From positions 3,162,133 to 3,226,132 of the forward strand of contig OY762274.1 of the NCBI GenBank assembly GCA_963665315.1: a stretch of DNA of 64,000 bases. Direction: 5' to 3'. The DNA is from Pseudomonadales bacterium. GTDB lineage: Bacteria > Pseudomonadota > Gammaproteobacteria > Pseudomonadales > Pseudohongiellaceae. Positions 27,501-45,753 of the stretch are shown piece after piece; position 1 is the first letter of the stretch, and each line of letters begins with the position of its first letter. The translations under genes and the position numbers were made by a program. The notes beneath the pieces were generated by a model that did not search any database, had not been told where the DNA came from, and saw only the letters and a program-made list of their open reading frames with translations.

Positions 27501-29445
27501 CGTCGTCGTCGGCGACTTCCACCGAGGCTTCGGCGTTCCGGCCGTGGGGCAAATAGCCCGTCCCCGCCTCCACCGTCGCCGTCACGCTGCCGAAGGGCTC
27601 GTCCGTATCGTCGTCGACGGTGCCGACCCTGAAGGTCGCCGTGCCGGTCGTTCCCACGCTCACCCTCCGCGGTCCGGTCTCGCCGATAGACGCGAAATCG
27701 CCGCTCTGGGTCACGCCGACGTTGACCGCTATGGCCGCGGCAGGGGCCGGGCTCGCCGTCAGCGTAAAAGTCGCGTCCCCGCCTTCCGTCACCGCCGCGC
27801 CGCCCGACACGCTCACCGTCGGCAACTCGTGGATCGTCATCGTGGCCGCGGCGGGGTTTCCGAGGTCGTATTCGGCGCCGTCGACCGCGGTCACCACGAC
27901 GGTCTCGCCGTCGTCGGCCACATCGTCGTCGTACACGGCGATCGGGAACGCCACGGGGGAGGACGCTTCGGTCCCGGCCGGCAGCGTGAAGGCGCCGCCG
28001 GCCTCGCCGCAGCCCCCGGCGATGGTGTAGTCCACCCGGCAGGTCGCCGTGCCGCCGACGGTGTAGCGGACGGTCAGGGCCGATCCCAGATCCCGGGTGA
28101 CCTCCAGCGCCAGGAAGCCGTACAGCGAATCGTCCCCGCCGGTCCGCTCCGGGCGGGTGGCGTTACCCTCCCAGGACACACTGGGCGTATCGTTGTCGGC
28201 CACCGCCACCGAAGCCGAGGACGGGTTGCCGACGGTGTAGGCGTGGCCGGCGTCGGGCGCCACCGTCGCGGTGAGGTCGCCGCCCGCCTCGTACGCGCTG
28301 TCGTTCACGGTGGCCACGGTGAAGACCTTCGTGCCGGAGGCCGGAATCTCCACCGTCCGCGCCCCTTCGTCGCCCGCGGCCACGAAATCCCCATTGGCCG
28401 CCGCCGCATCCGCCACCCGCACGTTGACCGTCAGCGCCGAAGCCGGGGTGGCGGTCAGGGTAAAGCTCGCCGCCGCGCCTTCGACGATCCCGCCCGCCGC
28501 GGTCGGGGCGATCGTCACCTTCGGCGGCGGATCGTCGTTGTCCGACACCAGCACCGCTTTCGTCCCCGCCCCGGGGTTCGCGGGGGTGTCGGGAAGCGTG
28601 TAGCCCGTACCGGACTGCAGACTCACGATCACGCTGTTGGCTTCTTCGTCCCGGTCGTCGTCCACCGTGGGAACCGCGAGCGCGGCGCTGGCCTGGCCCG
28701 CCGGGATCGTGACGGTCTTGTCGCCCAGGTCGTCCGCGTCGACGAACGCGCCGGAAGCCGGCTGGCGCACGCGCACCTTCACGGGAAGGGCAAGGTGCGG
28801 CGCCGGGTTCGCCGAGACGGTAAAGGTCGCGGGGCTGCCTTCCTCCACGCTGCCGCCGGCGGAAATCGTCACGGCGCTGATCTCCATGATGGTGACCTGG
28901 ACCTGGTCGCCGGGGGGCGGGAAACCGATTCCGGCGGGGGGAATGGAGAGGACCGCGCTGAAGTTCTCGTGCCCCTCGGCGGTTGTGTCCGAGTGGATCG
29001 TGACGTCCAGCGTGGCGCGGGTGCTTCCGGCCGGAATCGTGAGGCTGTACGGCCCCCCCGCGTAGTCGTTGTTCTCGGTCGCGCTGAGGGAAACCGTTAT
29101 GATCTGAAGAGTCGTCGCCACCTCGCGGGCGGCCGACAGCACCACCGGCAGGCTCACCTTGCCCGCGTCCTCCCAGACGGCGACGGCGGTCGAGGTGAAG
29201 CGCGCGGTGACGTCCGGCGTCTGGGCGAGGGCCGCCGGCGCGAGCATGCCCTGCAGCAGAAAGGCGAGCAGGAGCGCCGCCGCGGAACGGCGGAGGAGGC
29301 GGCCCGCCGTGGCCGGACCCGGGGACGCGTCAAGAACGCGCTGCGCGGATGCGGGATCGAAGCTGCCGGGGGAGGGGGAGTGGGCAGGAGAATCAGGCGG
29401 GGAGGTCGGGCGCCAGGGGCGGGGCGGCCATGAAAACGCGCTCAT
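24550..29445 (-). CDS. Giant surface/extracellular protein with multiple Calx-beta domains, a dystroglycan-type cadherin-like domain, a (Pro-x-Asp)n linker and a repeated Cys-containing C-terminal module
   Basis: The frame is open from 29685 to 24550. Calx-beta-like units recur (for example ATENNDYAGGPYSLTIPAGSTRATLDVTI and GTATRGVDYTF). One cadherin-like unit reads DADGDALSYAASLSDGSALPSWLDF...FSGTP. The signal-like segment RLLRRSAAALLLAFLLQGMLAPAALAQ begins about 50 aa after ATG 29445. The start is uncertain (ATG 29445, or TTG 29685 through the repeat tract). Confidence 0.85.
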   Translation of the reverse strand: MSAFSWPPRPWRPTSPPDSPAHSPSPGSFDPASAQRVLDASPGPATAGRLLRRSAAALLLAFLLQGMLAPAALAQTPDVTARFTSTAVAVWEDAGKVSLPVVLSAAREVATTLQIITVSLSATENNDYAGGPYSLTIPAGSTRATLDVTIHSDTTAEGHENFSAVLSIPPAGIGFPPPGDQVQVTIMEISAVTISAGGSVEEGSPATFTVSANPAPHLALPVKVRVRQPASGAFVDADDLGDKTVTIPAGQASAALAVPTVDDDRDEEANSVIVSLQSGTGYTLPDTPANPGAGTKAVLVSDNDDPPPKVTIAPTAAGGIVEGAAASFTLTATPASALTVNVRVADAAAANGDFVAAGDEGARTVEIPASGTKVFTVATVNDSAYEAGGDLTATVAPDAGHAYTVGNPSSASVAVADNDTPSVSWEGNATRPERTGGDDSLYGFLALEVTRDLGSALTVRYTVGGTATCRVDYTIAGGCGEAGGAFTLPAGTEASSPVAFPIAVYDDDVADDGETVVVTAVDGAEYDLGNPAAATMTIHELPTVSVSGGAAVTEGGDATFTLTASPAPAAAIAVNVGVTQSGDFASIGETGPRRVSVGTTGTATFRVGTVDDDTDEPFGSVTATVEAGTGYLPHGRNAEASVEVADDDGTNAAPTVANAIPNRAATAGEPFSYAFPANAFADADGDALSYAASLSDGSALPSWLDFAAAARRFSGTPAAGDIGSVTVRVTASDGNGGGVSDDFVIDVGAAGAGTARINISPIGTITPNTVVEGVRVSLGLSLSAPLSDHGAVASYTVSVGGTATRGVDYTFECGPAPGVTCSNLDSANPTFTVVIGDQNSRVVQSVVFLRATADSVADNGETVILSLDGTSSTLTIADPPTSVEVSWAVAARDVLEYAREVSHIHIVRLSAAYPEDIVVPLTFADRTATGGTDYTPSASITIPAGKNFVSGEGEPYTLIRDTLREGSETFDMTLDWANATPAGLVAAGSRLTQRVTILDPPLVSFAAAASTVGEGDGTHAVGLVFAPATVGAVTVIVAAEGGAERGEDYDINVFTDTGKLGVKVPHNRVAHNLNVDIVDDNLAEGAETVVLTLVSENVLYQIDEDAIRTHTVTIVDDDPPRPPPGPEPVDPVDPVDPVDPADPVDPVDPVDPVDPVDPTDPVDPADPIDPTEPDPEPAMSPAAREHLFPLFADGDGFRGRLFLTDVSAADNRCALTLAGAGLDAARFEAHAALTAAEDGAVVDFGAAGPDVALATTGAEGLAVGYAKLSCERPTLARMLLVLEDGGVPMALTDLESTQGVREFRFPVLPRVGRLGLVFANDNALDASCAVELTTASGARAGGNLAVPARSAAVRFLDELAPMPDDAEDGSVSVTCDRAVAPLGVALHGGDFAALAAFVPAPAPAAPEDGEDGDDPRTHRVLPLVRDGGGFRSHLAVANLSDTANSCKLRLHMPGAPTARFALPGGAATEGFDTIALTLAGGGQAVLSSRDRNLPAFGHAVLDCEAPADLRNLLTARADDGSAGVAAVSPATPTKEIRFPVAPGLARLALALANAGEADAFCEVALTLPGREEAAGPSIRVAGASTAIRFLADLFGPPDDFEGGAVTLRCDREIAAVALPAAAGAAFTAQAP
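25936..26063. repeat. 9-bp in-frame tandem repeat encoding a (V/T/A/I)-D-P linker
   Basis: About 14 units of CCGG(A/G)TC(G/C/T)AC-like 9-mers on the + strand. They translate on the - strand as PVDPVDPVDPVDPADPVDPVDPVDPVDPVDPTDPVDPADPIDP. Confidence 0.9.
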
Positions 29446-29466
29446 GGCCGACGCGCGCGCACGAGC

Positions 29467-29682
29467 CCTGCGGTCCTGCGGTCCTGCGGTCCTGCGGTCC
29501 TGCGGTCCTGCGGTCCTGCGGTCCTGCGGTCCTGCGGTCCTGCGATCCTGCGATCCTGCGGTCCTGCGGTCCTGCGGTCCTGCGGTCCTGCGGTCCTGCG
29601 GTCCTGCGGTCCTGCGGTCCTGCGGTCCTGCGGTCCTGCGGTCCTGCGGTCCTGCGGTCCTGCGGTCCTGCGGTCCTGCGGT
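29467..29682. repeat. 8-bp microsatellite (CCTGCGGT)27, i.e. (ACCGCAGG)n on the coding strand
   Basis: 27 head-to-tail units counted, 25 perfect and 2 with G>A (29539-29554). The tract ends 21 nt upstream of ATG 29445 of the giant surface protein. All reading frames are open through the tract. Confidence 0.97.
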
Positions 29683-30083
29683 CAATCACACGATCGGATT
29701 CCCTCGCGGTTCCCGTCAAGCCCAACATCGAACCGATCCCGAAAAAATCCCGCGACCCGCGGTCCAAAATCCTCATGCGATCTCCCCCCGTCCAAATCCA
29801 TAATCGCCGGCCGCGAAGCGACCGCCGCCGGCCCGAATCCGGGCAGCCCGACGAAATTTGGACGGAATCTACAACATCTCTTCCCGCAAGACAATCGAAA
29901 ATTCGCCCCGCTTGACCGAGCTGGCCCGAGGCTCCGTTCACCATCGCTTTCTTATTGGAAAACGCTTTGCGGCCGGTTCAGGCCTTTTCGAGCGGAAGCG
30001 AACCATGTGTCGCCCGACAATGTAATCGGAATGCGATTCTGCTAATTTCGGGAGGAACTCCGGAGAGGCGGTACATATTCCTG

Positions 30084-31915: not shown

Positions 31916-32860
31916 ATGTCACGCATATCGCAAAAGCTGATTATCGTCGGCGCCCTGCTCGCGGCAGGCGGCGCCTCCCAGGCCCAGAACAGTTGGGTCG
32001 ACCTGGCGGTGCATAATTTCGGCGCTCCCATCAACACCATGTGGGCGGAAGGCGAACTGACCTTTGCCGACGACGGCACCATGGTCTATTGCAGCGCGCG
32101 GCAGGACATGGCCGTGGCGCCGGGTGACCCGAAAGATCTCTATATCGCAACTTTCGACCAGGAATCAGGCACCTGGAACACTCCGGTGAACATGGGCATT
32201 CCGGTCAATGCGGCGCCCGCCACCGATGTCGACCCCTTGCGCAAGGGCGACGACCGCGAACCCTGGATCACCGCCGACGGCAACACCATCTATTTCAAGT
32301 CGGACCGGCTGGCGACGACAAGCCCGCAAAACAACAACGACGTGTTCGTGACCCGCAAGGTGAACGGTCAATGGACCGAACCCGAACTCGTCGGGTATCC
32401 GATCAGCACCGACGAAGGCGACGAACATTGCCCGGCGATCTTGCAGGACGGCGAAACGCTGTGCTTCGCTTCAAGGCGGGCCGGCGGATTCGGCGGCTCC
32501 GACATCTATTGTTCGCGCCAGGACGCGGCCGGCAACTGGATGGAGCCGGTCAACCAGGGTCCGAACATCAATACCGAAGGCGAGGAATTCCACTTCAGCC
32601 AGGCCGAAGACGGTACGGTCTATTTCACTTCCAGCCGGCCGGGCGGATACGGCGGCATGGACATCTGGGGCGCGGCGGCGGCAGGCACAGACAGTTGGGG
32701 GCCGGCTTTCAATCTCGGTCCGCAAGTCAATACCGCGGGCGCGGACATGTGTCCGGCGTTTCCGCCCGGGCAGGACTCCATTACCTGGTTTTCGACGCGC
32801 TCCGACAACAGCCTGGGAAATATCGATATTTTCTGGACCAGCAAAGTAAACGTGGATTGA
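31916..32860 (+). CDS. Secreted PD40/TolB-like beta-propeller repeat protein
   Basis: Signal peptide followed by repeated PD40-type blocks (WITADGNTIYFKSDR; LCFASRRAGGFGGSDIYCS; VYFTSSRPGGYGGMDIW). An AGGAGA RBS is upstream. Confidence 0.75.
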   Translation: MSRISQKLIIVGALLAAGGASQAQNSWVDLAVHNFGAPINTMWAEGELTFADDGTMVYCSARQDMAVAPGDPKDLYIATFDQESGTWNTPVNMGIPVNAAPATDVDPLRKGDDREPWITADGNTIYFKSDRLATTSPQNNNDVFVTRKVNGQWTEPELVGYPISTDEGDEHCPAILQDGETLCFASRRAGGFGGSDIYCSRQDAAGNWMEPVNQGPNINTEGEEFHFSQAEDGTVYFTSSRPGGYGGMDIWGAAAAGTDSWGPAFNLGPQVNTAGADMCPAFPPGQDSITWFSTRSDNSLGNIDIFWTSKVNVD

Positions 32861-32965: not shown

Positions 32966-34114
32966 TTGACCTCTGACACTTCCACAACCGCCAGTTCCGC
33001 CGCGGCGCCGGTTCTCGTTACCGGCGCCGCCGGGCACGTGGGCGCCAATCTCGTGCGCCGGCTGCTCGACGACGGCGTCCGGGTTCGGGTGCTGTTGCGG
33101 CAGGAAGACAATAATCAGGCGCTCGAAGGCCTCGACGTCGAGCGCGTCTGGGCGGATATCCGCTATCTCGACGCCACCCGGCGCGCGCTTGAGGGCTGCC
33201 GGGGGGTGTATCACGTCGCCGCCAAAGTTTCGACGATCGACGGCAATAACGCCCATCGCCGGGAAATTTACGAATGCAACGTGGTCGGCACCCGCAACGT
33301 GCTGCAGGCCGCGCGCGAGACCGAAGCCGGTCGTGTCGTGGTCACCGGTTCCTTCAGTGCGGTGGGGCACGACCTCGACGATCCGTCGGCGCCGAGCGAC
33401 GAAACGATGCAGTTCTATCCCATGGAACGCACGATGCCCTACGAGCGCAGCAAGATTCTTACCGAACATGAGTGCCTGCGCGCCGTTGCGATGGGTCAGG
33501 ATGTTATTGTCGCGACCTGCTGCGCGGTCGTGGGCGGGGCCGATTACCTGCCCTCCCGTCTCGGCAGAACCATGTGCGACTACACCGACGGCAAGCTGCG
33601 CGCCTATGTCGACGGCGGCTTCGAGTTCGTCGCCGCGCGGGATATCGTCGAAGGCCATGTGCTCTGCATGGAGAAAGGGCGTACAGGCGAGAAATACATT
33701 TTCAGTTCCGAATACAAGACCATTTCCGACATCGTCGACCTGTACGAGGAGGTCTCGGGAGTTCCCCGCCCGAATCGGCGGATTCCGGCCAACCTGATGT
33801 ATCCGTTTTCGGAAGTTGCGAGCTTTTACCTCAGCCGCTTTCATCCGGACTTTCCGCAACGATTCACGCCCGGGGCCATCCGCCTGTTGAAAAAACGCCG
33901 GCATGCGAATCTTGCCAAAGCGAAAAACGAACTCGGCTACCGGCCTACGACCATCCGCGCCGCCGTGCACCAGGCGTACGCGTTTCACTATCACGAGCGC
34001 AAGGCGATCGCCAATCCGAACGCAAAACCGCCATGTGAAGAATCGGCAAGCCGGATCGAAAACCCGGTGCGCGAGCAGGATATTCAAGTTACCGCGGGGG
34101 AAAGTTCAGCATGA
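32966..34114 (+). CDS. NAD(P)-dependent SDR (3-beta-HSD / dihydroflavonol-reductase-like); candidate SdmB-like sterol C-4 demethylation reductase
   Basis: VLVTGAAGHVGANLVRRL Rossmann motif and an extended-SDR YxxxK context (PYERSKILTE). TTG start. The stop overlaps the Rieske gene ATG (ATGA at 34111-34114). The functional call comes from the operon context with sterol genes. Confidence 0.7.
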   Translation: MTSDTSTTASSAAAPVLVTGAAGHVGANLVRRLLDDGVRVRVLLRQEDNNQALEGLDVERVWADIRYLDATRRALEGCRGVYHVAAKVSTIDGNNAHRREIYECNVVGTRNVLQAARETEAGRVVVTGSFSAVGHDLDDPSAPSDETMQFYPMERTMPYERSKILTEHECLRAVAMGQDVIVATCCAVVGGADYLPSRLGRTMCDYTDGKLRAYVDGGFEFVAARDIVEGHVLCMEKGRTGEKYIFSSEYKTISDIVDLYEEVSGVPRPNRRIPANLMYPFSEVASFYLSRFHPDFPQRFTPGAIRLLKKRRHANLAKAKNELGYRPTTIRAAVHQAYAFHYHERKAIANPNAKPPCEESASRIENPVREQDIQVTAGESSA

Positions 34115-35208
34115 ATCAGGCAGTGAGCCCACCTCCAGGCTTCAATGAGGCTTCGGGATTGCGCCAGAAATCCCGGGCCGCCGGCATGGACCCGGATTAC
34201 TGGTACGCGGTGGAAGAAGTGCGCAACGTGAAACCGGGCTCGGTCGTCGAGGCAGTTTTCTGGAAACGCTCGATTGCGCTGTACCGGACGGCCGACGGCG
34301 AATTTCACGCGGTCGAGAATCGCTGCGCCCATCGCCAGCTCAAGCTTTCGCTCGGGCAAGTGGAAGGCTGCCGCCTGGTCTGCGGCTATCATGGCTGGGA
34401 ATATGACGAACAGGGCCGTGTCGTCGGCATCCCCGACCTGTTCGGCCGCAAGGAATTGCCCGAAATCTCGATCAGGCGCTACCCGGTACAGGTCCGCTAC
34501 GGCCTGGTCTGGTTGTTCCCGGGCAATCCCGAACTCGCGGAACAGCGCCGGATTCCCGATATTCCGGAGATCGAGGGGCCCGACCGCTGGGCATGCGTGC
34601 CGATCACATTTACCTGTACGGCCCACCATTCGATGATAATCGACAATGTCAGTGACTTTTCCCACGCGTTCCTGCACCGCAAATACCGCCCCTTCGACGG
34701 CGCCACGCTGACCCAGTGTGAAACCAGGGGTGACGATGTGCATCTCGCCTACGACACGAAGGTCGGACGCGGGCCCATCTCCGGATTGTTCGTCGATCAC
34801 GGACGGCTGAACACCAACCACATCGAACTTTGCTACCAGTATCCGTACCAATGGTCGAACACCGACGACGAAATCAAACATTGGCTGTTCGTGCTGCCCA
34901 TCGACGAACGCACTACCCGGACGTTTTTCCTGTTTTATTTCAAGTCGCTGAAATTTCCGTTGCTGCCGGTGCGCTTCCCGCGATTCGCCATGACCGCGGT
35001 AATGAAAGTATCGAATCGTCTGCTGATCGGCCCCCTGCTCGATGAGGACCGGGTCGCCGTGGAGGCGGAGCAACTCGGGTATGAGCAGCACTGGGACGCG
35101 CCCTCCATCGAGGTGAATCCGGTAGTGAGCGCCTTCCAGCGAGTGACCGTGCGCAAGTGGCAGGAATACCTGGCGCGGGAAGCGGAGTCCGGCAATGCCG
35201 CCGCCTGA
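34111..35208 (+). CDS. Rieske [2Fe-2S] non-haem-iron oxygenase; candidate SdmA-like sterol C-4 methyl oxidase
   Basis: Rieske motif CAHRQLKLSLG...CGYHGWEYD (CxH-N17-CxxH), followed by a catalytic domain with the DNVSDFSHAFLH mononuclear iron block. The gene is translationally coupled on both sides. Confidence 0.75.
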   Translation: MNQAVSPPPGFNEASGLRQKSRAAGMDPDYWYAVEEVRNVKPGSVVEAVFWKRSIALYRTADGEFHAVENRCAHRQLKLSLGQVEGCRLVCGYHGWEYDEQGRVVGIPDLFGRKELPEISIRRYPVQVRYGLVWLFPGNPELAEQRRIPDIPEIEGPDRWACVPITFTCTAHHSMIIDNVSDFSHAFLHRKYRPFDGATLTQCETRGDDVHLAYDTKVGRGPISGLFVDHGRLNTNHIELCYQYPYQWSNTDDEIKHWLFVLPIDERTTRTFFLFYFKSLKFPLLPVRFPRFAMTAVMKVSNRLLIGPLLDEDRVAVEAEQLGYEQHWDAPSIEVNPVVSAFQRVTVRKWQEYLAREAESGNAAA

Positions 35209-36298
35209 CGCCGGGCTGGCGCCGATGACGCTCTCCGGCGATGCCCTGCTTGCAGCGGCGGTCATGCTGCTGGTTTTCCTCGTTGTCCTTTTTGCCGGTT
35301 CGATGTTCGTGCCTGGCCGCACGCTCGTTCTTGCCGACGCCGAAGCCGGCAACAGGGAGTTCAGGCTGAACGGATTCGCCCTGTTCCTGCTGGTCGTGGC
35401 GTTGGCCGCCATTTGCCAGTTTTTTGGCTGGTTCTCGCTTTCGGCGCTGCATTCGCATTTTGCCGCGCTGTTCGTGATGGCGAATGTTTTTTCCTTCGTG
35501 CTTTCCGGCTGGCTGTACCGGCGGGGCGAGGGCGCGCCCAACGCGCCGCAAGGATTTTGGCGTGGCTACTTCATGGGCCGGGAACTCAACCCCACCCTGC
35601 TGGGAGTCGATCTGAAAATGTTCAGTTATCGTCCTTCCCTCATTGGCCTGGCGCTGCTCAATATCTCGTTCGCCGTCGCGCAATACGAGACCTACGGCCA
35701 GTTGACGCTGGGGATGGCGCTCTACCAGGCCTTCACGTTTGCCTATGTGTTCAACTATTTTCAGTTCGAGCAAGGCATGATCCACACTTGGGACATCATC
35801 AGCGAGCGCTTCGGCTGCATGCTCGTCTGGGGCGATTACGCGCTCGTGCCGTTCTTCTATTGCCTGGCCGGATGGTGGCTGGTCGACGCAACCGGGCCGG
35901 CATTGCCGCCCCTGGCCGCTGCCGGTGTCGTTATGTTGTTCGTTTTCGGTTTCTGGCTGTTTCGCGGCGCCAACGAGCAGAAGCACCGCTTCAAACAGGA
36001 CCCTGATTCCATGATTTGGGGCAAACCCGCGGAAGCGCTCGACGGCCGTCTGCTCGTTTCGGGATTCTGGGGCATCGGGCGGCATCTCAACTACACCGGC
36101 GAAATCTGCATCTATCTTTCCTTTGCGCTGACCACGGGCTTCGTTTCCTGGGCGCCTTTCCTGTTGCCGGCGTGGCTGGCCGGATTGCTGGTGCAAAGAT
36201 CGCGCCGCGACGAGCGACGCTGCCGCGCCAAGTACGGCGAGCTTTGGAATCGCTATACGCAGCGGGTGAGATTCGTGATGGCGCCTTTCATTTACTGA
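35195..36298 (+). CDS. ERG4/ERG24-family sterol reductase (most likely C-14 reductase)
   Basis: Polytopic membrane protein. The C-terminal signature LLVSGFWGIGRHLNYTGEI...LLVQRSRRDERRCRAKYGELWNRYTQRV...APFIY matches the sterol reductase family consensus (GxxRHxNYxG ... RDxxxCxxKYG ... PxIY). Confidence 0.88.
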   Translation: MPPPDAGLAPMTLSGDALLAAAVMLLVFLVVLFAGSMFVPGRTLVLADAEAGNREFRLNGFALFLLVVALAAICQFFGWFSLSALHSHFAALFVMANVFSFVLSGWLYRRGEGAPNAPQGFWRGYFMGRELNPTLLGVDLKMFSYRPSLIGLALLNISFAVAQYETYGQLTLGMALYQAFTFAYVFNYFQFEQGMIHTWDIISERFGCMLVWGDYALVPFFYCLAGWWLVDATGPALPPLAAAGVVMLFVFGFWLFRGANEQKHRFKQDPDSMIWGKPAEALDGRLLVSGFWGIGRHLNYTGEICIYLSFALTTGFVSWAPFLLPAWLAGLLVQRSRRDERRCRAKYGELWNRYTQRVRFVMAPFIY

Positions 36299-36306
36299 GG
36301 ATTTCG

Positions 36307-37698
36307 ATGGCGCTTCAATCCCACAATGCGGAGGTTTCGGCGGAGGCGGCCGGGGCCGTCCCCGAGATGAGCGGAGGCTTGCCCCTGCTCGGACATCTGC
36401 GGGAATTCCAGCGGGACCCTGTCGCGTTCCTGTGCCGCGGCCGGCGCGAGTGCGGCGAGCTTTTCCAGTTCGGGATCGGTCCGCGCAAATTCGTCGTGTT
36501 TGCCGGGCCCGAAGCCCACCATGCTTACTTCAAGGCTCCGGAAGAAACCCTCGACGCCAAGTCGGTGTATCAGTTTACCGTGCCCATTTTCGGGCGCGGC
36601 GTAGCCTACGACGTTTCTTCCGAACTCATGACCGAGCAACTCGGATTCCTGTTTCCCGCGCTCAGGGAATCGGCGATGCGGCGCTATGTCCGCATCATGT
36701 TCGAGGAAGCGGAAAGCTTTTCCGACTCGCTTGGACAGGAGGGGGAGTTCGACCTGCCCCATGCGATGAACGAACTCACGGTGAACATCGCCAGCCGCTG
36801 CTTTCTCGGCGAGGAAATCCGCAACGAAGTGGACTCCGGATTCGCCGAGGCGTATCACGATCTTCAGAACGGCATCAACACGCTCGGCTTCTTTTTCCCG
36901 CGGCTGCCGACTCCGGCGCACCTGACCCGCGACCGGGCGCGGCGAAAAATTACCGAAATCTTCAGTGGCATCATGCGCGAAAGGCGGCGTACGGGCGCCC
37001 AATCCGAAGATTTCATGCAAACGCTCATGGAGGCCCAATACAAGGACGGACGGCCCTTAAGCGACAATGAGGTTACGGGACTGCTGTTGACGACCTTGTT
37101 CGCGGGCCAGCATACCAGCGCGGTGCTCGCGTCCTGGACCGGGCTCGAATTACACCGGGAGCTTCCGTATCTCGACCGGGTGCGAGATGAAATGCGAGAG
37201 ATCTACGACGAGGAAGGATCGCTGAGCTATGCGGGCCTGAAGCAGCAACCGCTACTGGAAAACGCGGTCCGCGAATGCGAACGGCTGCATCCGCCACTGA
37301 TCATTCTGATTCGCAAGGCGCTCAGGCCGCTGACTTATGGCGATTACACCGTACCGGCCGGCGCGCTGGCCGTGGTGTCACCGGCGCTTTCACATCTCTT
37401 GCCGAATGTTTTCGCAAACCCGGAAAAGTTCAATCCGGACCGTTTCGCTCCGCCTGCCAGCGAGGAAAAGCAACACCCCCACGCCCTGATCGGCTTCGGC
37501 GGCGGCAAACACTGCTGCATGGGCAAGAACTTTGCCATCCTGCAGATCAAGGCAATCTGGACCGTGCCGCTGGATCGATTCGAATTCAAACTCGACACCC
37601 CGTTTCCCGCACCGAATTATGGAAGCTGGGTGACAGGACCCAGGCTGCCATGCCGACTTCGCTATCGACGCCGCTCGCAAGCGAGCATTTTCCACTGA
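36307..37698 (+). CDS. cyp51: Cytochrome P450 sterol 14-alpha-demethylase
   Basis: CYP51 B'-helix signature YQFTVPIFGRGVAYDV, I-helix LFAGQHTS and haem-thiolate loop FGGGKHCCMGKNFA. 463 aa. ATG at 36307, 8 nt after the reductase stop. Confidence 0.9.
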   Translation: MALQSHNAEVSAEAAGAVPEMSGGLPLLGHLREFQRDPVAFLCRGRRECGELFQFGIGPRKFVVFAGPEAHHAYFKAPEETLDAKSVYQFTVPIFGRGVAYDVSSELMTEQLGFLFPALRESAMRRYVRIMFEEAESFSDSLGQEGEFDLPHAMNELTVNIASRCFLGEEIRNEVDSGFAEAYHDLQNGINTLGFFFPRLPTPAHLTRDRARRKITEIFSGIMRERRRTGAQSEDFMQTLMEAQYKDGRPLSDNEVTGLLLTTLFAGQHTSAVLASWTGLELHRELPYLDRVRDEMREIYDEEGSLSYAGLKQQPLLENAVRECERLHPPLIILIRKALRPLTYGDYTVPAGALAVVSPALSHLLPNVFANPEKFNPDRFAPPASEEKQHPHALIGFGGGKHCCMGKNFAILQIKAIWTVPLDRFEFKLDTPFPAPNYGSWVTGPRLPCRLRYRRRSQASIFH

Positions 37699-40600
37699 GC
37701 GCCACAGGGCTGCCACGCTACGATATAGCCATCGTCGGCGGGGGCCCGGTAGGCAGCTTGTGCGCGCTGGCCCATGCCCGCAAGGGCGCCAGGGTTGCCC
37801 TGCTCGAAGCGAATCCCAAGGCGGCGCAACGACTTGCCGGAGAATGGCTGCATCCTCCGGCGGTGAGGATGCTGCAAGGCGTCGGCGTCAATCTCGATGG
37901 GCGGCCGGGATTTTCCCCCGGCAAGGGATTCGTCGTCTTTCCGGAGGACCGATCGGAATCCATCCTGTTGCCCTACCCGGAAGACTCCGCGGGCCTGGTA
38001 TTCGAACATTCCGCACTCGTCTCCTGCTTGCACGAAGCGGTCGAGAGCGAGCCTGGAATCGAAATTTATCGCCACGCGCGAGCGCGGGCGATCGAAGACG
38101 AAGGAATCGTTTTCAGCTTCAATGGCGCTGAACGTCTGCTGCAGGCCGGGCGGATCGTCGGCGCCGACGGCCGGGCCTCGATCGTGCGGCAATCGCTGGG
38201 CTTGCGGACCGAGCGCATGACCTGCTCGCGCATGGTCGGGGTCGTGGTCGAAGGTGTGGAACTGCAGCACGAAGAATTCGGCTATGTCGTACTCGGCCCA
38301 CCCGGACCCATACTCACCGTGCCGCTGGGCGAGGGCCGCGTCCGCATCATAGCCGACATGCCGCTGGACCTCTGGACGCCGCGGGACCGGGTCGGCGTGT
38401 TGCTGGAATCTTACGCCGGCTACTTGCCGGAGGACCTCAGGTCCGCGTTCGTAGATGCGATCCGGTCGGGAAAATACCAGGCTGCCGCCAACGAGTTAAG
38501 GCCGCGAATGACTTACGGCTCCTCGCGCCGCGTACTTATCGGCGATGCGGCAGGTCATTACCATCCGATGACCGCGGCCGGGATGACCCTCGGTTTCGCC
38601 GACGCTCTTGCCCTTGCCGAGGGCGGAGATTTCCGGAAATTCGCGAACCGCAGGCTGAAAGAAACCAGGGCTCCACAACTTCTCGCCATGGGGCTGTATG
38701 AAGTGTTCCGCGATCACCGGCTGGAGTCGTCGGTGTTACGGCAGGCCGTTTACCGGAATTGGCGGGCCAGCAAACTGGTCCGGGCCCGGACCATGCGCCT
38801 GCTTGCCTGCGAGGACTCTTCCGTAACGCGGCTCGGCACTGCTTTCAGCGTGACCGTGGCGACCGGATTCGCCGGAGAACTCTGGCGGCGCAACGGCATT
38901 CTCACCCGGCGCCGGGCGCAAGTCATGATTCGTACGCTGGCGGCTCGGCTCAACTGGCTGGTGCGGGGCGTTCGCGAACTGGAAAAGGCGCACGGTTCGA
39001 GCGGCGCCGATGAACAGTCCGCCCTGGACAAGCTTTCCGGCGCCTTCCTGATTTCGATGCAGGAGCACTCCGACACCGCGGCGCCTGTTCGTCCGAACGA
39101 TCTGGCCCCGGTCGAAGCGGGTACGGGGCTGGACCTTGCCGCGAAGCGCTTGCTGGATCTGCAGCGCGAAGACGGCGCCTGGGAAGGCGAGATGACCTGG
39201 TGCCCCATGCTTGCCGCGCAATACGTGCTGCTTCACTACGTCATCGGCCGGCAAATCGAACCCGGCCGTCGCCGGCTGCTGTTGCGCCAGTTCGAACGAA
39301 CTCGCCTCGAAGGAGGACTCTGGGGCCTGCACGAGCACGCGCGGGACAGCCTGTTCGTCACGACCCTGGTTTACGTCGCTGCCAGACTGCTCGAAGTCGG
39401 GCCGGACGACCCCTTGATCAGGCCGGCCCGCGAATTCATGCAAAAAGAAGGGGTCCTGGGCATCCCGAGTTGGGGCAAGTTCTGGCTGGCGCTGCTGAAT
39501 CTCTACGACTGGCGCGGGGTGAACGCCGTGCTGCCTGAATTGTGGCGCCTGCCGCGGCGATTGCCGTTGCATCCTTCAAACTGGTACTGCCACACCCGAC
39601 TCATCTACATGGCGATGGCAACCATATATTCATGCCGGTTCCAGCTTCCGGTGAATCCCGTAATCGAAGCCTTGCGCGAAGAACTTTTCCCGGAAGGCTT
39701 TGACGGAATCGATTTCACTGCCGGCCGCAATCGCCTGCGCAAGGCCGATCTGTTCGCCCGGCCCGGCATATGGCTGCGTGCCGGTTACGCTTTGACAGGG
39801 ATCTACGAAAAAATTCACAGCAAGCGCCTGCGCGCCCATTGCCGCAAAGAACTGGTTGAACGCATTCGCTGGGAACTGCAAAGTTCCAGCCACACCAGTA
39901 TTTCCCCGGTCAGTGGATTTCTCAACATTCTCTCCCTGTGGCTGTGCGACCCCGACGATGCCGACTTGCACAAGGCACTGGACAGCCTCGAAGGCTGGGT
40001 CTGGGAAGACGAGGAAAACGGAACACGGATAACCGGTGCGCGCAGCGCATCCTGGGATACCGGATTCGCCCTGCAAGCGCTGTCGACGATTCCGGGCCGC
40101 GACGATGTGCGTCAAGCCTTGCGCAAGGGAGCAGACTTTCTTCGCGATCAACAGATTTCCGTCAGCTTCGACGGCTTTCGCGAGGCTTACCGCAACGACC
40201 CCAGGGGGGGCTGGTGTTTTGCCGGCGAATGGCATGGCTGGCCCGTAACGGATTGCACCGCGGAGGCGGTAGTCGGACTTGTCGCCGTGGATACCGAAGA
40301 AGTGGACGAAGCGAGCCTCGGCGAGGCGATCGGGTTCATGTTGCGCGGCCAGAACCGCGACGGGGGCTTCGGCAGTTATGAAGCGAAGCGCTCAAGAATT
40401 GGCCTGGAGTGGCTCAATCCGGCGGAAATGTTCGGCGAATCGATGACCGAGCATTCTTTTGTCGAATGCACCGCCTCCTGTCTGGCGGCGCTGGCGGCGT
40501 GCAAGCGGCGCTTGCCGCGGGTCGTCGATGAAACAGCGCTCGAATCCATGTCCCGGGCCGACGCATGGCTGCGGCGGACCCAGGCGAACGACGGTAGCTG

Positions 40601-41054
40601 GCGCGGCGTCTGGGGCGTGCAATTCATTTATGGCGTCCTGTTCGGCATAAGGGGCCTGCTTGCCGGAGGCGCGGGCCCCGGTGACCCTGCCTTGCGCCTT
40701 GCCTGTCACTGGTTGCTTGAGCGCCAACGAAGCGACGGCGGCTGGGGCGAACATCATAGCGGCTGCCTGAGCGGCAAATATGTCGCGCATGAGCAAAGTC
40801 AGGTCATCCAGACCGCCTGGGCGCTGATCGCCCTGCTTGAGGCGGGCGACTCACATTGGTCCGCAATTTCGCGCGGAGCACGATTTCTGCTCGACGCACA
40901 GGACGGGGAGGGGGGCTGGCCGAACCAGGACATGGCCGGAGTGTTCTTCCGTACCGCGCTGCTGGATTACGAACTGTACCGGCAGTATTTTCCCCTGCAC
41001 GCCCTCGGCCTCTTTGAACGTCGGCGGCGCGCCAGACTGGCGGAAAACGACTAG
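37650..41054 (+). CDS. Single ORF fusing squalene monooxygenase (N-terminal, about 450-480 aa) to oxidosqualene cyclase (C-terminal, about 620 aa)
   Basis: N-terminal half: DIAIVGGGPVGSLCALAHARKG FAD fold, RLAGEWLHPPA (squalene epoxidase R(I/L)xGExLQPGG block) and GDAAGHYHPMTAAGM. C-terminal half: repeated QW-type motifs (REDGAWEGE, NRDGGFGSY, ANDGSWRG, RSDGGWGE, DGEGGWPN), SWDTGFALQAL, and the catalytic VTDCTAEA motif of oxidosqualene cyclases (squalene-hopene cyclases have DxDDTA). There is no stop codon between the two halves in the given sequence. Confidence 0.85.
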   Translation: MPTSLSTPLASEHFPLSATGLPRYDIAIVGGGPVGSLCALAHARKGARVALLEANPKAAQRLAGEWLHPPAVRMLQGVGVNLDGRPGFSPGKGFVVFPEDRSESILLPYPEDSAGLVFEHSALVSCLHEAVESEPGIEIYRHARARAIEDEGIVFSFNGAERLLQAGRIVGADGRASIVRQSLGLRTERMTCSRMVGVVVEGVELQHEEFGYVVLGPPGPILTVPLGEGRVRIIADMPLDLWTPRDRVGVLLESYAGYLPEDLRSAFVDAIRSGKYQAAANELRPRMTYGSSRRVLIGDAAGHYHPMTAAGMTLGFADALALAEGGDFRKFANRRLKETRAPQLLAMGLYEVFRDHRLESSVLRQAVYRNWRASKLVRARTMRLLACEDSSVTRLGTAFSVTVATGFAGELWRRNGILTRRRAQVMIRTLAARLNWLVRGVRELEKAHGSSGADEQSALDKLSGAFLISMQEHSDTAAPVRPNDLAPVEAGTGLDLAAKRLLDLQREDGAWEGEMTWCPMLAAQYVLLHYVIGRQIEPGRRRLLLRQFERTRLEGGLWGLHEHARDSLFVTTLVYVAARLLEVGPDDPLIRPAREFMQKEGVLGIPSWGKFWLALLNLYDWRGVNAVLPELWRLPRRLPLHPSNWYCHTRLIYMAMATIYSCRFQLPVNPVIEALREELFPEGFDGIDFTAGRNRLRKADLFARPGIWLRAGYALTGIYEKIHSKRLRAHCRKELVERIRWELQSSSHTSISPVSGFLNILSLWLCDPDDADLHKALDSLEGWVWEDEENGTRITGARSASWDTGFALQALSTIPGRDDVRQALRKGADFLRDQQISVSFDGFREAYRNDPRGGWCFAGEWHGWPVTDCTAEAVVGLVAVDTEEVDEASLGEAIGFMLRGQNRDGGFGSYEAKRSRIGLEWLNPAEMFGESMTEHSFVECTASCLAALAACKRRLPRVVDETALESMSRADAWLRRTQANDGSWRGVWGVQFIYGVLFGIRGLLAGGAGPGDPALRLACHWLLERQRSDGGWGEHHSGCLSGKYVAHEQSQVIQTAWALIALLEAGDSHWSAISRGARFLLDAQDGEGGWPNQDMAGVFFRTALLDYELYRQYFPLHALGLFERRRRARLAEND

Positions 41055-42100
41055 TCCGGACTTGTCGGCAGTCCTTTCGCGGCCCGGCGAAAGAGCCAGC
41101 GTAATCCTCGATCGTTTTGCAACATGAGATTCGTTGCAAACAAGGTGACCCGCACGGAATTCCGGGAAATTTTTACCTGATCGGATGCGGTAAATTCCGG
41201 GTTGTGCTGGATCTTCCGCAAAGTCAGCACCGCCAGACCGAGAGCCCACAGGCAGAATCGGCGCATGCCGGCTTCCCTGGCGGGAAGATGGCAAGTGAAC
41301 TCCATCGCATTCCTCAAGTGTCTGTGAGCGATTGCAATCAGTGTACGCAGACCGCTCTGGAATTCGCTGGTCCGGTGATTCTCTCCCAGGTTTTCCAGCG
41401 AGAGCCTGCCATTGTCGAACACCGAGCGCGGCAACCAGCAGGCGCCCCGCTCACGATCGGCCCAGATGTCCTTCAATATATTGGTCATTTGCAGCCCCTG
41501 GCCGAAAGAAACGGCGAGGGATCGCAACTGCGGACGATTTTCCTCGAGTTCCGGACATTGAATGCAGAACAGATCGACCAGCATCTCGCCCGCCACCCCG
41601 GCGACCGCATAGCAATATGCGTCGAGTTCCGGCAAATCGCGCAGTCCCGCAAGGCTGCTGTTGCGCTGGAATTTCGGCATGTCGATGCACATGACGGACA
41701 CGCAGCGCTCGAGAATCCGGCGCTCGGCTTCGGTAAACGAATGGGTAACGCCGACTACCCGATCCGCGTTGCGCATCAGTTCGCGTTCGGCCGGCGGAAT
41801 TTCCGGGGACAGCAGCGGGGTCACTTGAGCGGAAAAGGCGCTCGCGTCCGTTTGAGCCTTGACCGTGGTCAGAAAACGCTCGAGATTCGCCTCTTTCTCC
41901 GCGAAGTCCAGGCGAGGATCGTCCTCGATCGTATCCGCGATGCGGCACAGCAAATAGGCATTGGTCACAACCAACGCAAGACGGCTCGGCAGAGCCGGTA
42001 TGGTCAGCGCAAAAGTCCGGGAAACGCCAGGCAGAATGGCTGCCTGGTATTGCTGGTTTTCTTCCAGCGCGTCCCTTTTGTTTCTGGTCAAGTCAAGCAA
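41051..42100 (-). CDS. Squalene synthase (farnesyl-diphosphate farnesyltransferase, eukaryote-like SQS type)
   Basis: 349 aa. LPGVSRTFALTIPALP and YLLCRIADTIEDD (first Asp-rich motif), with a second motif region YCYAVAGVAG. TTG start. The stop overlaps the stop of the SQMO-OSC gene (convergent, 4 nt). Confidence 0.85.
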   Translation of the reverse strand: MLDLTRNKRDALEENQQYQAAILPGVSRTFALTIPALPSRLALVVTNAYLLCRIADTIEDDPRLDFAEKEANLERFLTTVKAQTDASAFSAQVTPLLSPEIPPAERELMRNADRVVGVTHSFTEAERRILERCVSVMCIDMPKFQRNSSLAGLRDLPELDAYCYAVAGVAGEMLVDLFCIQCPELEENRPQLRSLAVSFGQGLQMTNILKDIWADRERGACWLPRSVFDNGRLSLENLGENHRTSEFQSGLRTLIAIAHRHLRNAMEFTCHLPAREAGMRRFCLWALGLAVLTLRKIQHNPEFTASDQVKISRNSVRVTLFATNLMLQNDRGLRWLFRRAAKGLPTSPD

Positions 42101-42224
42101 CGTCCATTACCTGCTTGCTCACGCTTCTTGCATGGTTGCCGAGCATATTACCGCAATTCGTCTCGTTCACGTTAACTGCCTAACCTGTTACAGTGCGGGC
42201 CACGGAGCCAGCAGGAGGGCGGCG

Positions 42225-43598
42225 ATGCCAAGAAAAATAGCAATAATCGGCGCAGGAGTTTCCGGGCTCGGAGTCGCCTGGGCCTTGCATCGAAATCCCG
42301 ACCGATTTGATTTCCGGCTGTACGAGACACAGGCCCAGGTCGGCGGCAACGCCGTTACCGCCGATATGCCCCAGGCGGACGGGTCGTCGATCCCCTTCGA
42401 TATTTCGGTCACCGCCTGCATTCCCACGGTGTATCACCACATTCTGCTGCTGATGCGGCAGCTTGGTGTCGAGCTGGTCGATACGAAATTCAGCTATAGC
42501 GTGAAATATCACGGCGAGATCTATGCACACGACCTCGACACCGAAATCGCCCGGCAGTTGCAGGAGGAAATCGACAGATTCCAGAAGTTGCTGAAACGCA
42601 TGAAATGGTTCGGCGCGCTCAACCGGACCCGGTCGAAATTTCTCAACGCGCTCAACCCCTTCAATTACCTCAGCATGGGCACGGTGCTGAATTTCGGTCG
42701 ATATTCCGGAGGCTTCAGGTACAAGGTGCTCAAACCCATGTTCGTCAACTTCCTGATGGCGACGAACGTGTTCGACATGCCGGCTTCGCTGTTCGCCCGC
42801 TACCTGGAATTCTTCGACATCGTCAATGCAACTCCGATGCAGACCTGGGAAGGCGGCACGCGCAACATCTACGAAAGGCTGACGGCGTCCTTCCGCGACA
42901 GAATTTATCTTTCCCGGCCGGTGCGCAAGGTGATCCGGCGGGAATCCGGCGTGGACGTAGTGGACGAGAACGGCGCTGCCGAGACCTTCGACGACGTGGT
43001 GTTCGCCTGCAACGCCAACCAGACACTGATGACGCTCGACAAACCGGGGTTTTTCGAGACCTGGCTGCTGTCGTCAATCCGCTATGAGAGCGAGTTGCAC
43101 AATCACGCCATCGTCCACTCGGACGCTTCCCTGCTGCCGGAAAACGAGGCGAAGCCCCTGGACACCCGCAGCAATCACATCGAGCAATACGCCGCCCGGC
43201 CGGACAACTACGAAATCACCTACATCATGCACAACCAGCAGCCCTGGGCGAAGCGGTCCGACAAACCCTGCCTGGTGACCTATAACGCGATCAGCCGCAT
43301 AGACGAAAGCAAGATCGTCAAGCGCTGGTGGTTCCAGCACGTCGTCCATGACGTGCGGCATATCGCGCTGCTCGTCCACCTGTTCCGCTTCATTCAGGGC
43401 AGGCGGCGGAGCTGGCATTGCGGTGCCCATACGCTCGTCAACAGCCAGGAGACCTGCTTCGTGACCGGCCTGGTCACGGCGCGGCAACTCGGCGCGGACT
43501 ATCCCTTCGACGACGAGGAATGCCGCAAGTGGTTCAACTTCTACGGCCGCATGATGTACGGCTGGCGTTTCAGGCGAGCGCGTTCTCGAACAGGTTGA
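42225..43598 (+). CDS. FAD/NAD(P)-binding amine-oxidase-like oxidoreductase (COG2907-like)
   Basis: KIAIIGAGVSGLGVAWAL dinucleotide fold followed by LYETQAQVGGNA (GG motif). An AGGAGG RBS lies at 42212-42217. The gene is divergent from the squalene synthase gene. The precise function is unknown to me. Confidence 0.75.
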   Translation: MPRKIAIIGAGVSGLGVAWALHRNPDRFDFRLYETQAQVGGNAVTADMPQADGSSIPFDISVTACIPTVYHHILLLMRQLGVELVDTKFSYSVKYHGEIYAHDLDTEIARQLQEEIDRFQKLLKRMKWFGALNRTRSKFLNALNPFNYLSMGTVLNFGRYSGGFRYKVLKPMFVNFLMATNVFDMPASLFARYLEFFDIVNATPMQTWEGGTRNIYERLTASFRDRIYLSRPVRKVIRRESGVDVVDENGAAETFDDVVFACNANQTLMTLDKPGFFETWLLSSIRYESELHNHAIVHSDASLLPENEAKPLDTRSNHIEQYAARPDNYEITYIMHNQQPWAKRSDKPCLVTYNAISRIDESKIVKRWWFQHVVHDVRHIALLVHLFRFIQGRRRSWHCGAHTLVNSQETCFVTGLVTARQLGADYPFDDEECRKWFNFYGRMMYGWRFRRARSRTG

Positions 43599-44448: not shown

Positions 44449-44634
44449 CTTGTTTTCCTCAAAGCCGGAATCAGAATCGTCGTTGTACCCCAAAAGCCGA
44501 AACAATATCCACCTGTTGTGATTTGTGGCCTCGAACCGTCGGTGGCGGATAGGGGGTTGCGGCGTCCGCCACACACATGGGACACCCATCGTTTTGTGGC
44601 ATGATTCATGGGACAGTCATCGGAGGGTAATGCC

Positions 44635-45753
44635 ATGTTTGATTCGACTCGTCGGCGATTTCTGCAGACCGGGGCGGTCGCGGGGCTCAGTCTTGCCGGG
44701 CGTCCCCTGCTGGCCCAACAAAGCACGGTTGCAACGGTCGTCGGAACCGGTGTCGCCGGCTTTGAGCCTGAGCCGAGCGGGGGCGCGGAGGCAACGGCCG
44801 CTCCGATCAACAATCCTTACGGTGTGGTGTTCGGTCCGGACAGTGCCTTGTATTTTTGCGAAGTCGACACGGGCCGCACGCGCCGCGTGAATCTCGAAAC
44901 CAATCGGCTTTCCACGGTTGCCGGCAATGGCGACAAGGGCTGGGAAGCGGAATCGCGCGTGCCAGCCGAGACGCCGTTTTCGGCCCCGCACGAGATTCGC
45001 TGGGATAGCGGCAACCTTTTCATTGTCGAGCGCGATTCGCACACGGTGCGGCGCATCGACGGGCGTCTCGGGCTTGTTACCACGCTCGCGGGCAACGGCG
45101 AGCCGGGCTATGCCGGAGACGGGCGGCCGGCGGTGCTGTCCCAGTTGCGCCAGCCGCACAGCATCGCTTTCGATCCGGACGGCAACCTGTTGATCTGCGA
45201 TATCGGCAACAGCCGCCTGCGCCGGGTAGACCGCCAGACGGGGGTGATCAGCACGATTTCGGGCACTGGAGAACGGGAACGGACGCCGGACAGTGGTCCG
45301 ATGACGGGTACGCCATTGATGGGACCGCGCTCGATCGACATCGCGCCGGACGGCATGGCTTATCTGGTGCTGCGAGAAGGCAACGCGGTGTACCGGCTTG
45401 ACCTGGCCGGCGACCGTCTCGAGCGTATTGCCGGCACGGGCGAACGGGGGTATGGCGGCGATGGTGCGGCAGCGCTCGATTGCACGTTCAACGGGCCGAA
45501 GGGCATCGCTTATTCTAGCCGCGACAATTCGCTCTATATCGTCGATACGGAAAATCATGTGATTCGCCGGATGTCGCTGACGTCGGGGTTAGTCGACACG
45601 GTGCTCGGCACGGGCGAGCGCGGCGACGGGCCGGACGGGGATCCGCTGGGGTGCATGCTGGATCGGCCGCACGGGGTTTGTATTCGCAACGGGGTGGTTT
45701 ACGTCACTGACAGTGAAAGTCACCGAATTCGGGCGATTTACGGGTTGATGTGA
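44635..45753 (+). CDS. Tat-exported NHL-repeat beta-propeller protein
   Basis: MFDSTRRRFLQTGAVAGLSLAG twin-arginine leader. Repeated NHL-type units follow (PYGVVFGPDSALYFCE, PHSIAFDPDGNLLICDIGNSRLRRV, PKGIAYSSRDNSLYIVDTENHVIRRM, PHGVCIRNGVVYVTDSESHRIRAI). Confidence 0.85.
   Translation: MFDSTRRRFLQTGAVAGLSLAGRPLLAQQSTVATVVGTGVAGFEPEPSGGAEATAAPINNPYGVVFGPDSALYFCEVDTGRTRRVNLETNRLSTVAGNGDKGWEAESRVPAETPFSAPHEIRWDSGNLFIVERDSHTVRRIDGRLGLVTTLAGNGEPGYAGDGRPAVLSQLRQPHSIAFDPDGNLLICDIGNSRLRRVDRQTGVISTISGTGERERTPDSGPMTGTPLMGPRSIDIAPDGMAYLVLREGNAVYRLDLAGDRLERIAGTGERGYGGDGAAALDCTFNGPKGIAYSSRDNSLYIVDTENHVIRRMSLTSGLVDTVLGTGERGDGPDGDPLGCMLDRPHGVCIRNGVVYVTDSESHRIRAIYGLM

Follow-up and report, generated by a model that had tools for sequence, protein, structure and literature searches.

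In Methylococcus capsulatus Bath, in which the oxidosqualene cyclase (OSC) is MCA2873, and in other sterol-producing bacteria, squalene monooxygenase (SQMO) and OSC are two separate polypeptides, the genes for which are presumably adjacent in M. capsulatus. Mohanty et al. 2020 (Mar Drugs 18:124; GenBank MT026193.1) reported a protein that combines the two, MsbE, encoded by the msb locus in a gammaproteobacterium that lives in symbiosis with the sponge Melophlus sarasinorum, and "fused SMO/OSC homologs" are mentioned by Brown et al. 2023 (PMC10070321); the fusion is not discussed in Hoshino & Gaucher 2021 or in the 2025 cyclase preprint. Another natural fusion of bacterial sterol-pathway components, CYP51-ferredoxin, has been described in M. 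capsulatus (Lamb et al. 2020, PMC7947880), but it joins an enzyme to a redox partner rather than two consecutive enzymes. The present analysis concerns a 64,000-nucleotide stretch of DNA (the window; positions 3,162,133 to 3,226,132 of contig OY762274.1, assembly GCA_963665315.1) from a Pseudomonadales bacterium of the Pseudohongiellaceae, in which one open reading frame (ORF) encodes an SQMO followed by an OSC, the same enzymes in the same order as in M. capsulatus but with neither a stop codon nor an intergenic spacer between the halves. This ORF, for which the domains, catalytic motifs, conservation, synteny and junction anatomy were all observed directly, is very probably a genuine and conserved bifunctional gene of bacterial sterol synthesis and an orthologue of the msbE-type SQMO-OSC fusion.

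Like MsbE, the window protein has an N-terminal squalene epoxidase and a C-terminal sterol cyclase with the lanosterol-type Val, and its gene is the last in an operon with the order of msbA-E, in which genes for an NAD(P) oxidoreductase, a Rieske oxygenase, a sterol reductase and CYP51 precede the fusion. The two differ in sequence, the window protein being ~65% identical at best, and in the location of the squalene synthase gene, which lies directly downstream on the opposite strand in the window but on another scaffold in the Melophlus symbiont. A database protein, P0116 (QIJ55911.1, 1153 residues, "uncultured bacterium"), shares 65% identity with the window protein and, on this comparison, may be MsbE itself. 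The closest named relatives of the window lineage are metagenome-assembled genomes (MAGs) of Pseudohongiella, and the records nearest to its organism are uncultured Pseudohongiella MAGs for which no host is stated; bin names such as SB0675 and CAR3 presumably come from sponge studies.

The locus also resembles clusters that are described in Kelly et al. 2022 (Microbiome 10:164; PMC9531527) as having the order ERG24-CYP51-LSS/ERG7, a size of 5910 ± 74 bp and a distribution over 115 of 537 MAGs from Ircinia sponges in ten phyla, with evidence for horizontal transfer and low omega values. The order is the same in the window, where ERG24 through the fusion (35195-41054) spans 5860 bp, and the flanks are the same as well: a DFR-like reductase gene and one further gene, which in the window encodes the Rieske protein, are on the 5' side, and on the 3' side the opposite strand carries FDFT1 or SMT, in the window a squalene synthase gene (41051-42100, minus strand). 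Both sets of loci are spread over many phyla, which points to horizontal transfer, and appear to be under purifying selection. The LSS/ERG7 alignment of 3765 positions given there fits a gene of the size of the fusion, although the gene is named only LSS/ERG7 there, and the section that describes it makes no comment on a monooxygenase half. The sequence-only reading of this DNA took the two enzymes to be separate proteins, or adjacent genes at most, in the systems known to it; the novelty that this implies does not hold, MsbE having been published in 2020 and fused homologs mentioned in 2023; the architecture is already known and common in sponge-microbiome bacteria, and the window contains a further orthologue, not a discovery. 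What is added here is the apparent derivation of the junction from native termini and its fixed length, the unlikelihood of internal initiation, a shift of the start codon in one lineage, and how broadly the family is represented in current databases.

The expectation that both enzymes are encoded as one polypeptide of 1134 residues was borne out, the ORF being complete and both domain sets being present. Pfam assigns residues 24-324 to FAD_binding_3/SE, 496-788 to SQHop_cyclase_N and 799-1122 to SQHop_cyclase_C, with scores far over the curated cut-offs in each case. In the N-terminal half, the scores are 66.5 for SE (PF08491; cut-off 20.1) and 84.3 for the flavin adenine dinucleotide (FAD)-binding domain (PF01494; cut-off 22), and human squalene epoxidase (SQLE; 6C6N) matches with E = 1.4e-23; in the C-terminal half, E-values of 4.3e-47 and 3.4e-54 were obtained for SQHop_cyclase_N (PF13249) and SQHop_cyclase_C (PF13243), respectively, human OSC (1W6K) matches residues 502-1125 with E = 2.7e-128, and TIGR01787, for squalene/oxidosqualene cyclases, scores 480.7, over its cut-off of 322.7. 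An AlphaFold2 model, computed on an alignment of 120 homologues, has a mean predicted local distance difference test score (pLDDT) of 78 and a predicted template modeling score (pTM) of 0.78. In Foldseek comparisons with this model, the N-terminal part superimposes on 6C6R with a target TM-score (TMt) of 0.83 over 482 columns for a target of 451 residues, including the C-terminal helices of human SQLE, and the C-terminal part on human OSC (1W6J/1W6K) with a TMt of 0.79; no PDB chain covering both halves was found by Foldseek (best query TM-score, TMq, 0.52). The folds, the FAD motifs, the Asp of the DCTAE motif and the equivalent of Val453 are shared with the human enzymes, which differ in being separate proteins and in having eukaryotic N-terminal extensions that the window protein lacks. 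No transmembrane segment is predicted in the fusion, in which no 19-residue Kyte-Doolittle window exceeds ~1.5, and this fits two monotopic membrane enzymes.

A protein 100% identical to the translation is already on record (P0001), from a 3.46-Mb contig. The search for other SQMO-OSC fusions that had been suggested for this ORF was carried out and found them in at least 120 protein clusters and at 20 genomic loci. With clustering at 90%, 662 clusters matched; the best 120, to which the cluster counts given here refer and whose MAFFT alignment supplies the 120 homologues discussed below, are all full-length fusions of 1116-1186 residues that contain both domain sets and match with 97-100% query coverage and 65-91% identity. 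The same uninterrupted ORF is present at the 20 loci, identified in a scan of one genome per species, several of which are on closed chromosomes, including long-read assemblies. These loci belong to Pseudohongiella MAGs (91-92% identity), other Pseudomonadales, Arenicellales, Rhodothermales, Opitutales, Nitrospinaceae and others, and span at least five bacterial orders, to which the names among the protein clusters add Nitrospira. In a deeper search of 1.84 billion representatives at 50% identity, the main fused clade is covered by one representative, and 10 more match both halves at 37-50% identity; 8 of these 10 approach full length, and in each of the five scanned with Pfam the fused architecture was confirmed. 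The same search returned many stand-alone SQMOs (~420-460 residues) and OSCs (~640-690 residues) that align with the fusion from one end to the other, at identities of 40-53%. In neighbor-joining trees of each half, constructed without bootstrap, the fused proteins occupy one region of the OSC tree with a few sequences of stand-alone length among them, but trees lacking bootstrap support do not settle whether the fusion had a single origin or several.

The flavin-binding motifs and the DCTAE motif are conserved throughout this family. In the SQMO half, the glycines of the dinucleotide-binding motif and the flavin motifs D173-G174 (DG) and G298-D299 (GD) are invariant in the 120 homologues. In the OSC half, the sequence VTD868CTAE aligns with VSD455CTAE of the human enzyme, making D868 the catalytic Asp of the DCTAE motif, and H862, V866, D868, C869 and E872 are invariant.

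The junction between the halves had been described as a low-complexity linker of ~50 residues. The peptide is present as it was quoted, but it is neither low in complexity nor freely variable: over residues 440-500, the alignment of 120 homologues contains a single insertion, of 2 residues in one sequence, and L467, S469, D489, A490, L494 and A497 are 90-98% conserved. In codon comparisons with five close relatives, the ratio of nonsynonymous to synonymous substitution rates (dN/dS) is 0.20-0.55 for the junction versus 0.13-0.18 in both domains; the value below 1 indicates that the junction is translated in this frame and is constrained, although less so than the domains. In the AlphaFold2 model, a long helix (420-446) is followed by a loop (449-453), a helix of moderate confidence (455-465), a second loop (473-484) and an OSC helix (491-503, pLDDT ~91), with pLDDT values below 50 in both loops. 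The alignments of stand-alone SQMOs end at about residues 457-463 of the fusion with almost no tail left, and stand-alone OSCs start at about residues 469-481; residue 469, for example, aligns with Met1 of P0134, and residue 471 with that of P0165. From these alignments, the "linker" appears to be built from the native C terminus of SQMO (~460) and the native N terminus of OSC (~470), with at most 10 extra residues. Such an end-to-end anatomy would be expected if two closely packed genes had lost the stop codon that separated them, and the fusion resembles a direct join of genes that were once neighbors; Met470 may be left over from the start codon of the ancestral OSC.

The start of the fusion gene has changed within the family. 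Its ATG at 37650 overlaps the end of cyp51 (TGA 37696-37698) by 49 nucleotides; the frame is also open farther upstream, as far as an ATG at 37275, but this lies within cyp51. In the window and its five closest relatives, ATG 37650 is the only canonical start ahead of the Rossmann motif, whereas most of the more distant loci also hold a start codon 14 codons before GxGxxG, mostly ATG but GTG or TTG in two, which overlaps the cyp51 stop by 4 nucleotides (ATGA). The replacement of this distal start by CTG leaves only the upstream ATG in the lineage of the window. About 85% of the database homologues are annotated to begin near residue 16. The coupling to cyp51 that had been proposed from the overlap is therefore to be divided into two parts: the overlap is real and the tight packing is conserved, but the 49-nucleotide form is specific to this lineage, most relatives having the 4-nucleotide ATGA.

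It might be supposed that the fusion is an artefact of sequencing or assembly, in which an error at the junction, either a missing stop codon or a frameshift, merged two adjacent genes. Errors or pseudogenes do occur in the gene family, since some MAGs contain frameshifted copies of 335 plus 776 or 796 residues, but nothing about them is specific to the junction: the break in the split copies is at about residue 326, within the SQMO domain and away from the junction. They are proteins P0274-P0276, P0278, P0281 and P0283 (cluster of P0007), from three MAGs, and may represent either pseudogenes or a recurrent assembly error. Being the sole split copies that were found, they also provide no example of a natural split at the linker, and this candidate was rejected. 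The same in-frame junction in at least 120 independent protein clusters and at 20 loci, closed long-read chromosomes included, together with its near absence of indels and its dN/dS below 1, shows no sign of a frameshift or lost stop and makes an artefact so improbable that it can be set aside. A different question is whether the fused ORF gives rise to two proteins in the cell, through initiation at Met470 or through proteolysis in the loops at about residues 447-454 and 466-490. Residue 470 is Met in 92 of the 120 homologues and is within 1-2 residues of the starts of stand-alone OSCs, and both modeled loops of low pLDDT lie in the regions concerned. However, the ATG at 39057, which the sequence-only reading had put forward as a start for independent translation of the cyclase, is preceded by a pyrimidine-rich stretch of 25 nucleotides, and all 20 loci lack a Shine-Dalgarno-like motif at 5-12 nucleotides before the Met470 codon. 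Five of these loci have a non-start codon at this place (GTC, GTT or ATA), and 26 of the 120 homologues have Ile instead of Met. Translation of the cyclase on its own is thus not conserved, and an internal start at this ATG was rejected. Conservation is higher at S469 and L467 than at M470, suggesting a structural motif, and the constant length of the junction in different phyla suggests that the covalent connection is under selection; the formation of two proteins from this gene is accordingly considered very unlikely.

The fusion could also be real but differ in its chemistry, the cyclase forming parkeol, cycloartenol or another triterpenol, or the monooxygenase being altered or acting on a substrate other than squalene. 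Several observations weigh against the assignment of the ORF as an SQMO-OSC of sterol synthesis and are best considered here. In the monooxygenase half, Phe94 (37929-37931), invariant in 120 of 120 fusion homologues, occupies the position of Tyr195 of human SQLE, an equivalence that assumes one extra N-terminal residue in the 6C6N chain; Y195 is presumably an important residue of the human epoxidase. No electron-donor partner for the monooxygenase was identified within the cluster. In the cyclase half, TIGR03463 (2,3-oxidosqualene cyclase) scores 714.5, under its curated cut-off of 851, and the homologues of SdmA, SdmB and squalene synthase all score under their equivalog cut-offs. A literature search for a biochemical characterization of any member of the fusion family found none, and both enzyme activities are predictions from sequence. 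The residues that distinguish lanosterol from cycloartenol synthases, a check recommended for this protein, give a divided answer: in the alignment to 1W6K, human positions 381, 449 and 453 correspond to Ala797, His862 and Val866, and two of these three classical positions are not of the lanosterol type, Thr381 being replaced by Ala and Cys/Gln449 by His, as in cycloartenol synthases. The homologous msb cluster, moreover, was proposed to produce nor-lanostane saponins (sarasinosides) and not membrane sterols. On the other side, Wei et al. 2016 found that in bacteria only position 453 predicts the product and that Val453 correlated completely with lanosterol in those tested; the SE domain is intact, as are the FAD motifs, which are also invariant; and the homologues of CYP51, ERG24, SdmA and SdmB in the operon are those that a lanosterol-type substrate would require. 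Because the equivalent of human Val453 is Val, the product is most likely lanosterol, although the mixed Ala/His/Val signature leaves room for parkeol or a mixture. A fusion with different chemistry in either half is regarded as unlikely, and the assignment as a bifunctional SQMO-OSC of sterol synthesis is preferred.

In the mechanism proposed for this assignment, squalene would be supplied by the synthase encoded convergently next door and would be epoxidized to 2,3-oxidosqualene by the N-terminal FAD monooxygenase module. In the C-terminal class II cyclase, Asp868 of the DCTAE motif would protonate the epoxide and initiate cyclization, most likely to lanosterol, from which the CYP51, the ERG24-type reductase and the SdmA and SdmB homologues of the same operon would then strip the C-14 and C-4 methyl groups. 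The covalent connection would keep two monotopic membrane enzymes together, in a 1:1 ratio, on one patch of membrane. 2,3-Oxidosqualene is not an especially labile compound, and a fixed 1:1 stoichiometry, co-location on the membrane and the transfer of two steps as one gene are more likely gains from the fusion than the channeling of a labile intermediate. Any kinetic benefit might include channeling through proximity or less over-oxidation to dioxidosqualene. A stronger version, a rigid two-site machine in which the exit of the epoxidase and the entrance of the cyclase face the same membrane patch and oxidosqualene is truly channeled without equilibrating with the bulk membrane, is suggested by the conserved junction of fixed length and the confident whole-chain model, but it is considered doubtful. 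If it were correct, channeling could be the selected trait behind the horizontal spread of the gene through diverse bacteria of sponge microbiomes.

Irrespective of mechanism, with the fusion a single gene that can be transferred covers both committed steps of sterol synthesis. The cluster is widespread in sponge-associated bacteria and bears on the question of a bacterial contribution to sponge sterols and hence on the reading of sterane biomarkers (Brown 2023, Kelly 2022). The fusion is also a convenient prospective single-gene tool for the production of lanosterol in engineered bacteria.

The fusion gene is the last of five co-directional and nearly contiguous genes that begin with the sdmB-like gene (Table 1), and its stop codon shares the palindrome CTAG with that of the convergent squalene synthase gene. 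By tblastn, all or nearly all of the order sdmB-Rieske-ERG24-CYP51-fusion is kept in 18 of the 20 loci with an intact fusion, in several phyla, and the convergent squalene synthase gene is kept in the related gammaproteobacterial loci. Unlike the CYP51 of M. capsulatus, that of the window has no fused ferredoxin domain. A foreign composition of the cluster was considered and rejected, the G + C (GC) content being 0.60-0.63 compared with a background of ~0.62, with no compositional sign of recent transfer.

Table 1. Features of the fusion gene and of the surrounding operon, in window coordinates.
Feature	Position	Strand	Evidence or remark
sdmB-like NAD(P) epimerase/3-beta-hydroxysteroid dehydrogenase, first operon gene	32966-34114	+	TTG start; Pfam; NF052578 (SdmB) 300.6 vs cut-off 600
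sdmA-like Rieske oxygenase (4-methylsterol monooxygenase homologue)	34111-35208	+	Pfam Rieske, VanA_C; NF052579 412.8 vs cut-off 600
ERG24-type sterol C-14 reductase	35195-36298	+	Pfam ERG4_ERG24, E = 1.4e-68
cyp51-like cytochrome P450	36307-37698	+	Pfam p450, E = 2.1e-60; no fused ferredoxin domain
SQMO-OSC fusion ORF, complete	37650-41054	+	1134 residues; ATG start, TAG stop 41052-41054; Pfam domains; identical database protein P0001
SQMO module, ~residues 1-460	37650-39029	+	Rossmann FAD domain, SE domain, C-terminal Arg-rich helices (H328-446 in model)
CTG codon overlapping cyp51 stop (CTGA)	37695-37697	+	start codon at this position in most relatives from other phyla, mostly ATG
GxGxxG dinucleotide-binding motif (G30-G35)	37737-37754	+	G30, G32, G35 invariant in 120 homologues
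Junction, ~residues 461-490	39030-39119	+	fixed length, moderately conserved; end of helix 455-465, low-confidence loop 473-484
Met470 codon	39057-39059	+	possible relic of OSC start; not supported as a working internal start
OSC module, ~residues 491-1134 (from ~470 if the native N terminus is counted)	39120-41051	+	Pfam, 1W6K match, TIGR01787, Foldseek
Active-site stretch H862-G-W-P-V866-T-D868 (human C449...V453, D455)	40233-40253	+	alignment to 1W6K
Squalene synthase (SQS_PSY)	41051-42100	-	Pfam PF00494, E = 9.2e-51; convergent with fusion

The boundary between ERG24 and cyp51 (window 36295-36309) has features in common with that between cyp51 and the fusion. The cyp51 start ATG at 36307 is preceded by GAGGA, overlapping the ERG24 stop codon (TGA 36296-36298), and the codon that overlaps this stop is CTG, the same CTGA pattern being present at the cyp51/fusion boundary.

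One further copy of the cluster, at locus L021 (OY762706.1), is from a MAG that by blastn is 97-99% identical in DNA to window 33018-42443 but has seven internal deletions of 252-908 bp. Three of them fall in the fusion, the last extending to ~65 bp from its stop; the others affect sdmB, the Rieske gene, cyp51 and the interval between the squalene synthase and amine-oxidase-like genes. The deletion junctions share 3-17 nucleotides and the flanks are intact; the locus may be either a decaying cluster or an assembly artefact.

Beyond the squalene synthase gene, an amine-oxidase-family FAD protein is encoded at 42231-43598 (plus strand). It has no equivalog match but is co-conserved with the sterol cluster, and in L005 and L007 its gene is directly downstream of the fusion and is 78-80% identical, above the identity of the fusion itself; on this basis the protein is a candidate for a sterol-modifying or squalene-related enzyme. 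The cluster is flanked by genes for a PD40 beta-propeller protein (31916-32860, plus strand) and an NHL-repeat protein (44608-45753, plus strand), the former of which is kept beside the cluster in the closest relatives, L001, L002, L012, L017 and L021. Farther upstream, an ORF of 1711 residues with Calx-beta and He_PIG (putative Ig) domains (24553-29685, minus strand) lies in a 6-kb island with a GC content of 70% versus ~62% elsewhere, and probably encodes a large surface or adhesion protein.

Other combinations of enzymes acting on squalene were encountered among the database proteins. P0192 (1022 residues) is a fusion of squalene synthase and cyclase, and in P0186 a cyclase is preceded by an unassigned 420-residue region. 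In P0206 and P0225, an SQMO is followed by ~400 residues without assignment and then by a squalene synthase, and about 10 further SQMO-led proteins, mostly of 1080-1200 residues, group with these two in the SQMO tree.

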